A stretch of DNA of 64,000 nt from Candidatus Limnocylindrales bacterium (GTDB lineage Bacteria; Chloroflexota; Limnocylindria; Limnocylindrales; CSP1-4), in the NCBI GenBank assembly GCA_035699445.1, contig DASSPX010000132.1, forward strand, positions 299 to 64,298, written 5' to 3'. The translations under genes and the position numbers were made by a program. Positions 2,597-58,251 of this stretch are shown here, piece after piece; positions within the stretch are counted from its first letter, which is position 1; the number at the start of each line of letters is the position of its first letter. The notes under the pieces are model-generated. The model saw only the letters and a list, made by a program, of their open reading frames with translations. It searched no databases and had not been told where the DNA came from.

Positions 2597-3690
2597 TGAC
2601 CGTGACCGAGCGGACCGGCGGCTCCGGTGGCCTCGGCGCGTCGGTCGGACTGTCCGATGCGCAGCTCGTGGAGATGTACCGGCTCGTGGCGCTCGCTCGG
2701 GCCGTCGACGAGCGGATGTGGATCCTGAACCGCGCGGGCCGGATCCCGTTCGTGATCTCGGGCCAGGGCCACGAGGGAGCGCAGGTGGGGATCGCGAGCG
2801 CGCTGACGCCCCACCACGACTGGATCGCGCCCTTCTACCGCTCCATCGCGACCTGTCTCGCGTTCGGCATGAGCGCCCGCGACATCATGACCGCCCAGTA
2901 CGCGACCGCGAACGATCCGTCGAGCGGCGGGCGCCAGATGCCCGGCCACTACGGGTCGCGCGAGCACAACCTCGTATCGGTCTCGTCGCCGGTCGCCACG
3001 CAGCTGCTCCACGCGGTGGGCATCGCGCTGGCGGCGAAGATCCGCCGCACCGGCCAGGTGGCGATGACGATCATGGGCGAGGGGAGCAGCAACCAGGGCG
3101 ACGTCCACGAGGGCCTGAACTTCGCGGCGATCCACCGGCTGCCGTTCATCTTCGTGGTCGAGAACAACGGGTACGCGATCAGCGTGCCGGCGTCGAAGGA
3201 GCTCTCGGTCGAGGACGTAGCCGTCCGCGCAGCCGGGTACGGGATGCCGGGCGTGGTGGTGGACGGGACGGACGTGCTGGCCTGCTATGCGGCGGCGCGC
3301 GACGCGGTGGAGCGGGCACGTCGGGGCGACGGGCCGACCCTCATCGAGGCGAAGGTCACCCGGCTCACCGCCCACAGCTCGGACGACCAGCAGACGAAGT
3401 ACCGCTCCGAGGAGGAGCTGGCAGCGGGGCGGGCGAACGACCCGCTGCCGAAGTTCCGGGAGCAGCTCGTGGGCGCGGGCGTGCTCACGCCGGAGATCGA
3501 GGAGCGACTGACGGCCGAGATCTCGGCCGCGGTGGACGATGCCACGAAGTTCGCCGAGGCCGAGCCGGACCCGGATCCATCGACCGCGATGCGCTGGGTC
3601 TACGCCGAGGACTGGCCGGGGGAGACGCCGCCGCCGTGGGGATTCGGCGAGCCGGGCGTGGGCAGGGCCGGCGGGAGCGGGGCGCACTGA
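2596..3690 (+). CDS. 2-oxoacid dehydrogenase E1 component, alpha subunit (TPP-dependent; branched-chain or pyruvate type)
   Basis: Internal ATG at 2596 overlaps the lpd stop (TGATG). MTVTERTGG...; motifs GQGHEGAQVG and GEGSSNQGDVHEGLNFAA. The track ORF 2293..3690 carries a spurious N-terminal extension. Confidence 0.9.
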   Translation: MTVTERTGGSGGLGASVGLSDAQLVEMYRLVALARAVDERMWILNRAGRIPFVISGQGHEGAQVGIASALTPHHDWIAPFYRSIATCLAFGMSARDIMTAQYATANDPSSGGRQMPGHYGSREHNLVSVSSPVATQLLHAVGIALAAKIRRTGQVAMTIMGEGSSNQGDVHEGLNFAAIHRLPFIFVVENNGYAISVPASKELSVEDVAVRAAGYGMPGVVVDGTDVLACYAAARDAVERARRGDGPTLIEAKVTRLTAHSSDDQQTKYRSEEELAAGRANDPLPKFREQLVGAGVLTPEIEERLTAEISAAVDDATKFAEAEPDPDPSTAMRWVYAEDWPGETPPPWGFGEPGVGRAGGSGAH

Positions 3691-41010: not shown

Positions 41011-41025
41011 GTGCACCCGGTGCAC
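41011..41025. promoter_or_regulatory. Operator-like dyad GTGCAC-N3-GTGCAC (site 1)
   Basis: GTGCACCCGGTGCAC read directly. It lies in the 407-bp non-coding gap upstream of the DUF1611 gene. Confidence 0.35.
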
Positions 41026-41111
41026 ATCCTGCCCCTGGAGGGCGCTCGCACGCCCGCTCCGGAATCCGATGCGCGCCACGCACACGTTCTGTCGCTTCGA
41101 CCGGACAGGTG

Positions 41112-41126
41112 GTGCACCATGTGCAC
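41112..41126. promoter_or_regulatory. Operator-like dyad GTGCAC-N3-GTGCAC (site 2)
   Basis: GTGCACCATGTGCAC read directly, 101 bp downstream of site 1. Confidence 0.35.
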
Positions 41127-56035: not shown

Positions 56036-56112
56036 GCCCCCGTAGCTCAGTGGACCAGAGCAGCCGCCTTCTAAGCGGGAGGTCGCAGGTTCGAATCCTG
56101 CCGGGGGCGCCA
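56036..56112 (+). tRNA. tRNA-Arg (anticodon UCU)
   Basis: Acceptor GCCCCCG/CGGGGGC, D arm GCTC..GAGC, anticodon loop CT-TCT-AA (56070-56072), T arm GCAGG-TTCGAAT-CCTGC, discriminator G. CCA is encoded. Confidence 0.9.
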
Positions 56113-56284
56113 TTCGCCTGCCGGTGTCGCACTGCACCAATCTGGTACTCCCGGCAGGACGAGAGTACGGCTTGGCGCGTGCCACATCCAACCTCGACAC
56201 TCCGCCCAGAACAGGGCCGGACCTCACCTCGCGTGCCCCGACCGGGACGGAGCGGCCCCTGATACAGCAGAGGCGAATCGATCG

Positions 56285-56479
56285 ATGGCATCCATGGCCG
56301 TCAATGACCTGGGACCGATGCTCACCGCCTCCGAGGTCGCCGAGATGCTCCACCTGCACGTCAACACGGTGAAGCGGCTCGGGGACCGCGGCGAGCTTCC
56401 TTTCTACCGCGTGTGCAAGCGCGGCGACCGCCGCTTCCGGCTCGAGGACGTGATGGCGTTCCTCACCCGGAACCGCTAG
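56285..56479 (+). CDS. Excisionase/MerR-type helix-turn-helix DNA-binding protein
   Basis: 64 aa. MLTASEVAEMLHLHVNTVKRLGDRGELPFYRVCKRGDRRFRLEDVMAFL fits the Xis-family HTH pattern (LT..E.A..L.V...TV.RL...GELP..RV......R....DV..FL). Confidence 0.75.
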   Translation: MASMAVNDLGPMLTASEVAEMLHLHVNTVKRLGDRGELPFYRVCKRGDRRFRLEDVMAFLTRNR

Positions 56480-56536
56480 CCGCTCCCTTCCGCTGCCAGC
56501 CATTCACCCGGGCACCGTCCGGGTCTCGGGTTCTCC

Positions 56537-56570
56537 GCACAACGCCCGCCGGCCCAGGCGGGCGTTGTGC
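56537..56570 (+). terminator. Strong hairpin after the Xis-like gene
   Basis: GCACAACGCCCGCC (56537-56550) pairs perfectly with GGCGGGCGTTGTGC (56557-56570). Loop is 6 nt. Confidence 0.55.
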
Positions 56571-56630
56571 GTTGCCGAAGCCGGCATCGGAGGGGGCGCG
56601 CCGCCCGCCGACCTGAGGGCCGCCGACCTT

Positions 56631-56880
56631 GCGCCACGTACGCCCCCGGTGCGTCACAACGGGTCCGCACCTGCGCCGTCGCGCCACGTACGCGCCCGGT
56701 GCGTGATACCGGACAGCAGCCGCTCCTCTCGCACCGTGTAGGCGTCGGCTGCGTGGTCGGTGCAACAGGGCGCCCGCCCGCGCGCCTTCCACGCGTGTGG
56801 CGCGTACCCGGGGCGACACCGCGTCGGGCGTGCCGGTTGTACGCGCCCGATGCGTGCTCCAGCACGCCGGATCCCCCGCC
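56631..56880. repeat. Degenerate tandem array, five units phased at 50-51 bp, plus a related sixth element at about 56900-56917
   Basis: Unit cores: 56631 GCGCCACGTACGCCCCCGGTGCGTC and 56681 GCGCCACGTACGCGCCCGGTGCGTG (24/25 identical). Weaker copies at 56731 (GCACCGTGTAGGCGTCGGCTGCGTG), 56782 and 56832 (GCCGGTTGTACGCGCCCGATGCGTG). A period of 50 is not a multiple of 3. Confidence 0.7.
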
Positions 56881-56946
56881 AACGACACACGCCGCGAGGG
56901 GACGCACTCGGTGCGTGCCCGGTGCGGAGGGTCGGTTCCGCGCCCG

Positions 56947-58251
56947 CTAACCCCCCGCGAGCGCCCGTTCGAAGATCCCGAGCGCCTCCTCGACCTCCGG
57001 GACCGTCACGTTCAGCGGCGGGATCCAGCGCACCACCTGGTGCTGGATCCCAGCCGTCAGGATGAGCAACCCCGCGTCGACGCACCGCTTCGCGACCGCC
57101 TCGGCGAGCGCCCCGTCCGGTTCCCGGGTGGCGCGGTCCTTCACGAACTCCACGCCGATCATCAGGCCCGGCCCTCGGACGTCGCCGATCGCAGGGTGCT
57201 CGGCCATCAGCTCCCGCAGGCCGCCGGTCAGCTCGGCGCCGCGCGCGGCCGCGTTCTCCACCAGCCGCTCGTCGCGGATCGTCTCGAGCACCGCCACCCC
57301 CGCGGCGCACGCCACCGGGTTGCCGCCGTACGTCGACCCGTGCGCGCCGCGGCCCCACCGCTCGTGCACCTCGCGCCGGGCGACGATCGCCGACAGGGGC
57401 AGGCCGTTGGCGACGGCCTTCGCAACCGCCACGACGTCCGGCACGACGCCCGCGTGCTCGAACGCCCACATCTTCCCCGTCCGGCCGTAGCCGCACTGGA
57501 CCTCGTCGAAGATGAGCAGGATCCCGTGCGCGTCGCAGCGCTCGCGCAGTCCGCGCAGGAACGCCGCGGGAGCGGGGTAGTAGCCTCCCTCGCCCTGCAC
57601 CGGCTCGATGAGGATCGCCGCGGTCGCCGACGGGGCGACCGTGGTCGCGAACAGCTCGTCGAGCGCGGCGAGGCACTGCTCGACCGCGCGCTCCTCGTCG
57701 CCCCCGAAGTCCCGGTAGACGGCGGGGAACGGGGCCAGGTACACGCCGGGCATGAGCGGCTCGTATCCCAGCCGGTAGTTCAGGTTCGAGCTGGTGACGC
57801 TTGCCGCCCCGATGGTCCGGCCGTGGAATGCGCCCCGGAAGGCGATGACTGCCGGGCGGCCGGTGACCCGCCGGGCGAGCTTGAGCGCGCCGTCGATGGC
57901 CTCCGAGCCGGAGTTGAGGAAGATCACCGTGTCCAGCGGCGCGGGAAACGTCTCCGCGAGCATCACGCTCAGCCGGGCGGTCGACTCGGCGATCCCGAAC
58001 GCGTGGACCGGCCCCATCAGGCGGTCGACCTGCTCGTGCACCGCAGCGAGGACGCGCGGGTGGGCATGCCCGAGCGCGGTGACCGCGATCCCGTTCGCGA
58101 AGTCGAGGTACGCCCTGCCGGAGGTGTCGTACAGGCGGTGACCCTCGCCGTGGCTCCAGCTCTTCTCCATGTACCGGCCCAGGACCGGGGACATCGCCGG
58201 CCGCGAGAGCGCGATGAGGTCGAGGGCGTCGGTCTGTTCGGTCGTGGCCAT
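56947..58251 (-). CDS. Class III (GabT/ornithine-type) PLP-dependent aminotransferase
   Basis: ATG 58251. LNSGSEAIDGALKLAR, LIFDEVQCGYGRTGKMWAFEH, VAVAKAVANGLPL (PLP lysine), GSTYGGNP. Confidence 0.9.
   Translation of the reverse strand: MATTEQTDALDLIALSRPAMSPVLGRYMEKSWSHGEGHRLYDTSGRAYLDFANGIAVTALGHAHPRVLAAVHEQVDRLMGPVHAFGIAESTARLSVMLAETFPAPLDTVIFLNSGSEAIDGALKLARRVTGRPAVIAFRGAFHGRTIGAASVTSSNLNYRLGYEPLMPGVYLAPFPAVYRDFGGDEERAVEQCLAALDELFATTVAPSATAAILIEPVQGEGGYYPAPAAFLRGLRERCDAHGILLIFDEVQCGYGRTGKMWAFEHAGVVPDVVAVAKAVANGLPLSAIVARREVHERWGRGAHGSTYGGNPVACAAGVAVLETIRDERLVENAAARGAELTGGLRELMAEHPAIGDVRGPGLMIGVEFVKDRATREPDGALAEAVAKRCVDAGLLILTAGIQHQVVRWIPPLNVTVPEVEEALGIFERALAGG

Follow-up and report, generated by a model that had tools for sequence, protein, structure and literature searches.

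The 64-kb window analyzed here (the whole stretch of 64,000 nucleotides) carries a cluster of six palindromic units, phased at about 50 nt, in the spacer between a gene for a small helix-turn-helix (HTH) protein and a convergent aminotransferase gene. This array is most likely one cluster of a palindromic repeat dispersed outside genes across the window's Limnocylindrales family, similar in kind to the repetitive extragenic palindromic (REP) sequences and bacterial interspersed mosaic elements (BIMEs) of other bacteria. The window lies on contig C132 of a metagenome-assembled genome (MAG; G000; 2.84 Mb, 179 contigs, ~80 % complete, ~72 % GC), which the source names of near-identical proteins place in Candidatus Limnocylindrales (Chloroflexota). 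G000 is the sole genome of its genus in the comparison set, and all genomes compared are fragmented MAGs.

The dyad cluster in the HTH–aminotransferase spacer

The six dyads of the cluster (Table 1) each span 17–18 nt and share the consensus core GTACGCGCCCGGTGCGTG. Centre-to-centre distances between neighbouring dyads are 50, 50, 51–52, 49–50 and 61 nt, four of these gaps agreeing within 3 nt of each other (P ~1e-4 under random placement, in a post hoc test). With up to three mismatches allowed (<=3), the 18-mer occurs four times in the window versus 0.57 times expected, and all four occurrences (4/4) lie inside the cluster. A first-pass annotation, made from the letters of the DNA, had described five units phased at 50–51 bp and a related element 61 bp beyond the fifth. 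The even spacing is real and the related element corresponds to unit 6 at 56900, but unit 4 is inverted and the dyads number six. Units 1 and 2, to which 24 of 25 shared nucleotides had been ascribed, are identical at 23 of 24 nt in the core.

Tandem Repeats Finder calls no array at this site, since only the cores of the units are alike and the segments between them are not. A 39-nt block of the units aligns at 82 % in a repeat search, beyond which the 50-nt units are unalignable; column by column, the direct copies agree less well outside the core than within it (identity expected by chance at this composition, 0.32). The proposal that the repeats are non-coding is borne out by the absence of a codon-position GC signal from the 467-bp spacer. 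The five spurious open reading frames (ORFs) across this spacer have no Pfam match.

Most relatives retain the convergent order of HTH and aminotransferase genes, their spacer measuring 10–190 bp versus 467 bp in G000. Comparison of the locus with that of relatives reveals a conserved HTH/aminotransferase backbone with no scar of an element, only the spacer being expanded in G000, and no dyads are present in the corresponding spacer of the relatives. Likewise, the metagenomic contigs with the closest HTH proteins (95–97 % identical; HTH-gene DNA 81–87 % identical) have short spacers devoid of dyads. Blastn of the whole spacer against 200 genomes of the family returned short GC-rich noise only and no homologue of the G000 spacer.

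Other sequences occupy the same spacer in some relatives. In two other genera (L022, G010:C9; L029, G009:C4) about 1.3 kb are inserted between the HTH and aminotransferase genes, the insert of G009 including an XRE-type HTH gene; the spacer may thus be a recurrent landing site. At L032 (G012:C1), the terminator hairpin is followed by a different short tandem repeat, GTCGCGTCCGCGG, with a 15–16-nt period and about four copies. Within the window itself, two GTGCAC-N3-GTGCAC dyads (41011 and 41112) lie 101 nt apart at 41011–41126, and GCGCCACGCAC between them resembles the left flank of units 1–2. A link of the cluster to these dyads is unsupported, the count of GCAC-N3-GTGC in the window being at chance level.

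Table 1. Repeat units and neighbouring features of the locus (positions refer to the window; R1, score in the covariance model of the repeat; identities are to the consensus core)
Feature	Position	Strand	Remarks
Repeat cluster	56624-56930	+	six ~50-nt-phased units of dyad TACGC-N7-GCGT(G/C), segments between dyads unrelated
Unit 1	56638-56655	+	core GTACGCCCCCGGTGCGTC; 16/18; R1 25.1 bits
Unit 2	56688-56705	+	core GTACGCGCCCGGTGCGTG; 18/18; R1 29.7 bits; unit sequence GCGCCACGTACGCGCCCGGTGCGTG
Unit 3	56738-56755	+	core GTAGGCGTCGGCTGCGTG; 14/18; R1 26.1 bits
Unit 4	56790-56807	-	core GTACGCGCCACACGCGTG, inverted; 14/18; R1 29.1 bits on minus strand
Unit 5	56839-56856	+	core GTACGCGCCCGATGCGTG; 17/18; R1 24.6 bits
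Unit 6	56900-56928 (core 56900-56917)	+	GGACGCACTCGGTGCGTG; perfect dyad ACGCAC-TCG-GTGCGT; 15/18; R1 26.0 bits
Half-copy	56911-56928		GTGCGTGCCCGGTGCGGA; overlaps unit 6
tRNA-Arg (anticodon TCT)	56036-56112	+	ARAGORN; Rfam tRNA 68.5 bits; neighbour, outside repeat element
8-bp hairpin	56118-56158		CCTGCCGG (56118-56125) with CCGGCAGG (56151-56158); read from sequence; overlaps an inverted repeat
Conserved upstream element of HTH gene	56143-56175	+	TGGTACT...N17...AGTACGGCTTGG
HTH gene	56285-56479	+	64 aa, stand-alone winged HTH (HTH_17/excisionase family, BldC-like); Pfam PF12728 E 1.7e-13
Perfect inverted repeat	56536-56571		15-bp stem, 6-nt loop; 100 % complementary (repeat search)
Class-III aminotransferase gene	56947-58251	-	Pfam PF00202 E 1e-118; NCBIfam aspartate aminotransferase family

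A dispersed repeat family of the Limnocylindrales

Outside the cluster, G000 contains a single further strong copy at C8:3559-3588 (core 3568-3585; GCGCCGCGTACGCCCCCGGTGCG), which matches unit 1 at 22 of 23 nt and is located in non-coding DNA, namely in the convergent spacer from a LuxR/MalT-type regulator gene to argH. Covariance model R1, built from 32 units, adds a non-coding singleton at C14:39361-39390; R1 matches inside genes look like chance. The genome-wide search for the repeat that the first-pass annotation had suggested thus retrieved copies on C8 and C14. Exact 20-mer scans of GTDB representatives and Joint Genome Institute (JGI) metagenomes are too strict for the family and gave seven isolated chance matches without homology. 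A degenerate 18-mer with one mismatch produced 14 matches in 200 genomes of the family versus 5 for the reversed control, three of the 14, including one on G121:C2, residing in non-coding DNA with extended similarity.

A gapped two-unit pattern matched 21 times in 400 genomes of the family versus 8 times in the control, and 50-nt arrays were found in G002, G016, G121, G560 (two loci), G637, G624, G695 and G546. In the array on G121:C2 the cores are at 368, 418, 468 and 529, i.e., spaced by 50, 50 and 61 nt as in G000. Altogether, the same core and period recur at unrelated loci in at least eight genera, commonly in 2–6 copies. R1 retrieved sites from 27 of 150 genomes of the family at E<=0.003 (E-values of this model being rough), with at most 10 sites per genome. 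Strong R1 matches number 9–10 each in G016, G121 and G126, and the richest genomes hold about 10–25 copies. The pattern is 2–8 times as frequent as the control in four of five genomes (fragmented MAGs), not in G159. Other families of the class show no enrichment of the gapped pattern (4 matches versus ~10 in the control), and in the sister order the HTH gene is kept and phased arrays were not found.

The unit of ~50 nt consists of a 17-nt dyad, TACGC-(R)CC-N-GG(Y)-GCGT(A/G), and a fast-evolving tail. The consensus from 106 de-duplicated sites reads C-W-N-G-TACGC-R-C-C-N-G-G-Y-GCGT-R-G, with GTAG or GGCGG often next. Across these sites, the five base pairs of the dyad (TACGC/GCGT(A/G)) vary little or not at all, and the three pairs inside them (RCC-N-GGY) are of Watson-Crick type in 56–66 % of sites. 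Distances between neighbouring dyads are 50 nt (21 cases), 49/51 nt, 60–61 nt (6 cases) and 101–106 nt (10 cases). The distinct distances of 40, 50, 61, 72, 104, 115, 124, 147 and 158 nt, obtained from 52 loci in ~35 genomes, fit a ladder with a step of ~10.7 nt and a remainder of ~7.5 nt (Rayleigh R 0.62, P ~0.004 versus uniform; post hoc, with non-independent data). This ladder hints at a DNA-helix constraint.

Young arrays in G016, G002 and G560 are simple tandem duplications whose units have the same tail, the tails varying between loci and genera. Together with the absence of the array at this locus from all relatives, they could speak for the G000 array as a functionless remnant, formed by local tandem duplication of one 50-bp segment and unrelated to anything elsewhere. 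Given that the same core and period recur at unrelated loci across genera, and that the G000 cores are far better kept than the segments between them, such a private origin is very unlikely. A CRISPR (clustered regularly interspaced short palindromic repeats) array was rejected on account of the period of just 50 nt, the degenerate repeats with one of them inverted and the lack of any Cas1 found; the identical 'spacers' of the young arrays elsewhere also argue against it.

The G000 cluster, the singletons and the arrays of relatives are located in DNA without codon-position GC signal and are thus extragenic. Genes beside arrays include dnaK, tyrS, rho, uvrC, acs, ligD, aminotransferase genes and others, housekeeping genes that are unrelated to each other and hence argue against a regulon. 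An arginine regulon, based on the tRNA-Arg gene, the copy after argH on C8 and the ArgD-like aminotransferase, was dropped since the flanking genes in other genomes are unrelated. In G121, the array fills a 305-nt convergent spacer, while the same gene pair is 14–50 nt apart and dyad-free in four congeners. As judged from such sequence comparisons, the arrays have been inserted or expanded in particular lineages, within spacers that are short elsewhere.

Both cluster-bearing spacers examined in detail (G000 and G121) are convergent 3′ regions, which may indicate that the units act as RNA, either as a hairpin string in the 3′ UTR of the mRNA for the HTH protein or the aminotransferase (stabilizer or terminator) or as a small RNA of repeated hairpins. 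Each dyad is able to form a 5–8-bp stem, on the plus strand G-T pairs are common, and REPs, too, are mostly located downstream of genes and thought to be transcribed (PMC3733652). However, on neither strand does the region differ in folding energy from shuffled sequences (z -0.15 and -0.38), and the degenerate units 3 and 5 retain sequence, not pairing. At pair 10-16 (AT 33, GT 29, GC 21, AC 14) the two positions are close to independence, with A-C mismatches being common, so that a hairpin constraint is not demonstrated. The Rfam search of the locus matched the tRNA only, leaving the cluster without match, a promoter/terminator scan found no promoter-like or terminator-like site, and some arrays are located upstream of genes, e.g., before uvrC in G560. 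A function as RNA consequently appears unlikely. The strand asymmetry of G-T versus A-C mismatches was left unused as evidence, since site orientation relies on R1, a model trained on seeds containing G-T.

Two further array families are present in G000, so that the phased-array phenomenon looks general for the lineage. At C87:5205-5518, downstream of metK and in a long stretch without codon-position GC signal, six copies of the 17-nt palindrome-like GATGAGCG-N-GGCGCATC are spaced by ~60 nt with unrelated segments in between. A second dispersed array family consists of GGCATACCTCTCAGGCATSC, four copies of which, 71–100 nt apart, are found at each of C176:1885-2130 and C92:3403-3716, in opposite orientations at the two loci. 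One of these arrays precedes ychF in a convergent spacer, and the other follows a gene for a type-III glutamine synthetase.

Neighbouring genes and the BldC-like HTH protein

The landmarks named in the first-pass annotation, i.e., tRNA-Arg(UCU), the 64-aa HTH gene, the strong hairpin and the 467-bp convergent spacer, are all present (Table 1), the length of the spacer following from the end of the convergent aminotransferase gene at 56947. The ORF of the latter is open up to 58446, with homology supporting a start near 58251. ORFs around the locus encode a solute-binding protein, a hypothetical protein, the aminotransferase and an acyl-CoA dehydrogenase. The inverted repeat at 56536-56571 represents a predicted terminator-like hairpin of the HTH gene, and GC-rich hairpins are found after the HTH gene at the equivalent position in relatives.

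The 8-bp hairpin is positioned between the tRNA gene and the conserved upstream element of the HTH gene. A block GGTAC..AAAGTACGGCTTG precedes the HTH orthologue in all 18 oriented relatives (18/18), and the element at 56143-56175 is probably the promoter region of the HTH gene. In all genera examined, the block GGTAC..N17..AAAGTACGGCTTG is followed by a conserved leader of ~110 nt (..GACACTCC..CCAGCAGCGAGCCGGAC..CAC..; 56143-56284 in the window). Block and leader have no Rfam match and may constitute a promoter with leader of an unusual kind, or a site of autoregulation.

Of the 24 genera of the window's family, 23 have an orthologue of the HTH protein (78–94 % identical), as have all of the 15 genomes sampled from the sister order (15/15; 73–80 % identical), whereas the streamlined 1-Mb family of that order lacks the protein. 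HTH_17 spans residues 12–64 of its 64 aa, and the TIGR 'excise' domain also matches. The AlphaFold model (pLDDT, i.e., predicted local distance difference test, 76) has its best PDB matches in the BldC chains 6AMA/6AMK (template modeling score, TM, 0.72–0.91; 37–39 % identity), followed by RacA and a mycobacteriophage Xis. The RacA site is the GC-rich palindrome TGACGCCGGCGTCA. Like Streptomyces BldC, the protein is a stand-alone winged HTH of 64–68 aa without coiled coil, encoded by a chromosomal core gene, and Arg30 of BldC aligns to one of its conserved arginine residues. Differences are the replacement of BldC Lys36 by Glu, the host phylum (Chloroflexota, not Actinomycetota) and a score of 29.4 bits versus a cut-off of 77 for the NCBIfam BldC model NF033787, which is below the family cut-off. 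Conservation, synteny, upstream block and modelled fold jointly indicate a class-level core gene of uncultured soil bacteria that encodes a BldC-like small regulator rather than an excisionase left by some lost element.

The only other HTH_17 domain in G000 forms the N-terminus of a ~970-aa protein with GAF repeats and GGDEF (C58:5323-8271). Paralogue matches of HTH_17 in relatives fall in open frames of ~1000 aa, and the GAF-GGDEF fusion appears to be kept. A link of the repeat to this C58 paralogue was rejected, the nearby blast match being inside the coding region of the 970-aa GAF-GGDEF protein.

Two readings had been offered in the first-pass annotation. That of an undescribed phased non-coding repeat locus holds, whereas that of 56113-56946 as the scar of an integrative element, entered at tRNA-Arg and leaving behind an excisionase with its arm-type sites, is refuted by the sequence evidence and extremely improbable. 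The latter drew on an HTH_17/excisionase-family gene directly 3′ of the tRNA gene and on lower-GC DNA; GC is indeed lower, but the difference is modest (0.68 versus 0.72–0.79). The supposed att echo of the tRNA 3′ arm at 56113-56126 is one arm of the 8-bp hairpin (56118-56125/56151-56158) and no duplicate of the tRNA end. A search of the ~80 % complete genome with the tRNA plus 23 nt downstream retrieved only other full-length tRNA genes (71–81 % identity) and no second tRNA-Arg 3′ end. As already noted at first pass, no integrase is encoded in the window, nor is there one on the contig; PF00589 matches only two tyrosine recombinases, on C105 and C69. Furthermore, the supposed mobile-element Xis is a core gene with a conserved upstream element of its own and not patchy among relatives. 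It stays linked to the aminotransferase gene with or without the tRNA, which precedes it in just one other genus (G018). The repeat itself is a dispersed intergenic element unlinked to the tRNA or the Xis-like gene. The tRNA-Arg and HTH genes are bystanders of the cluster.

The adjacent 64-aa protein might alternatively use the dyads as phased arm-type sites or iterons, oligomerizing on them in the manner of BldC (on direct repeats) or RacA (on GC-rich palindromes). The modelled fold would agree with such a role, as would, by analogy, the cooperative binding of BldC to repeat arrays (PMC5859096), the GTAC shared between the core and the GTACGG and GGTAC of the HTH upstream element, and the ~10.7-nt ladder of dyad spacings. 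However, the recognition helix is invariant across the window's family and the sister order, yet arrays are sporadic in the former and not enriched in the latter. In ~10 genomes with both positions known, dyads and HTH gene are on different contigs, the same spacer of relatives is dyad-free, and the BldC consensus AATTxxxx(C) with its 9-bp period is unlike the core (PMC5859096). Binding by this protein is thus distinctly improbable. The phasing possibly reflects protein binding on DNA. No sign points to the HTH protein as the binder; the sister order keeps the HTH gene with no arrays found, and dyads elsewhere are not beside the HTH gene.

A probable decayed REP/BIME-like cluster and its possible recognition

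The G000 array is best explained as a decayed cluster of a REP/BIME-like repeat. It appears to be old, with the segments between the dyads randomized and cores and period surviving. This contrast suggests that something still recognizes or corrects the cores. In the proposed course of events, units would arrive at a site and then multiply through tandem duplication, while the core would be kept by selection or copy correction, the dyad being recognized. The recognizing factor would most likely be a dimeric DNA-binding or DNA-processing protein, given that the dyad spacing is quantized in steps of ~10.7 nt. Action on DNA is favoured by this ladder and the lack of covariation, action on RNA by the usual 3′ location; the shuffle-like folding energy speaks against the latter.

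Several observations weigh against a REP/BIME-like repeat. For a REP family the copies are few, with one six-unit cluster plus 2–3 non-coding singletons in G000. Units are mostly direct, whereas REPs alternate in the BIMEs of E. coli, and true covariation within the dyad is weak. No REP-associated tyrosine transposase (RAYT)/Y1 transposase (PF01797) was found in G000, G002, G016, G121, G560 and G637 (80–89 % complete), for which reason a classical REP/RAYT system was discarded as a complete equivalent of the repeat. Finally, as there is no relative of the same genus and the closest contigs are only 81–87 % identical in the HTH gene, age and dynamics of the cluster are deduced indirectly, as is mobility, which is read from presence and absence in the sequences compared.

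Among known systems, REP elements with GTAG- and CGTC-tagged palindromic repeats have been described by Di Nocera et al. 2013 (PMC3733652). The Limnocylindrales repeat shares with the REP/BIME/REPIN (REP doublets forming hairpins) elements of enterobacteria and Pseudomonas the imperfect palindromes of 17–21 nt with a family consensus and the extragenic location, chiefly past the ends of genes and in convergent spacers. Elements of both kinds occur as single copies or regularly spaced clusters, and both are present at a given orthologous site in some lineages and absent from it in others. A transposase of their own is likewise missing from some REP super-families (CGTC type). In contrast, the Limnocylindrales repeat amounts to tens of copies at most, not hundreds, its mostly direct units keep a fixed 50-nt period whereas REPs alternate with defined linkers, and no RAYT gene was found with it in the six incomplete genomes. 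The dyad also has no clear 5′ GTAG tag, GTAG or GG often following it instead.

Two other types of intergenic repeats are comparable in part. The MIRU (mycobacterial interspersed repetitive unit) minisatellites of Mycobacterium tuberculosis have units of ~46–100 bp, including 51–53-bp ones, that are conserved over their full length and often contain small ORFs coupled to flanking genes. Tandem units of ~50 nt, a few dozen dispersed intergenic loci, a high-GC genome and growth by unit duplication are common to both, but the Limnocylindrales loci share only the dyad of 17–22 nt and nothing coding. In the neisserial intergenic mosaic elements, dRS3 cores, the target of a phage integrase, alternate with variable RS segments (50–150 bp, several classes). 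A short conserved inverted-repeat core likewise alternates with variable segments in the intergenic arrays of the Limnocylindrales, which differ by their fixed period and the lack of a linked recombinase.

A more specific proposal, tentative and rather unlikely at present, is that the dyads are docking sites for a dedicated DNA-binding protein assembling on the arrays along the ~10.7-bp ladder (40, 50, 61, 72, 104, 115 nt...). The class-wide BldC/RacA-like 64-aa protein beside the cluster could be that binder. If true, the arrays would represent a new kind of nucleoprotein platform in Limnocylindrales, or a spread of palindromic repeats there that does not depend on RAYT.

For these bacteria, one false lead is removed, in that an excisionase-family gene beside a tRNA gene is here no marker of a mobile element. 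The repeat (TACGC-N7-GCGTR, 50-nt period) is one defined case of an apparently more general tendency of Limnocylindrales genomes, in which several unrelated families of short palindromes occupy intergenic DNA as strictly spaced arrays without the RAYT that accounts for REPs elsewhere. If the spacing rule reflects a protein, the arrays would provide a handle for finding the binder, by way of a short DNA bait and the many variants found in nature. If not, they would still be of use as strain markers and call for caution when operators or CRISPR-like loci are predicted in these genomes.

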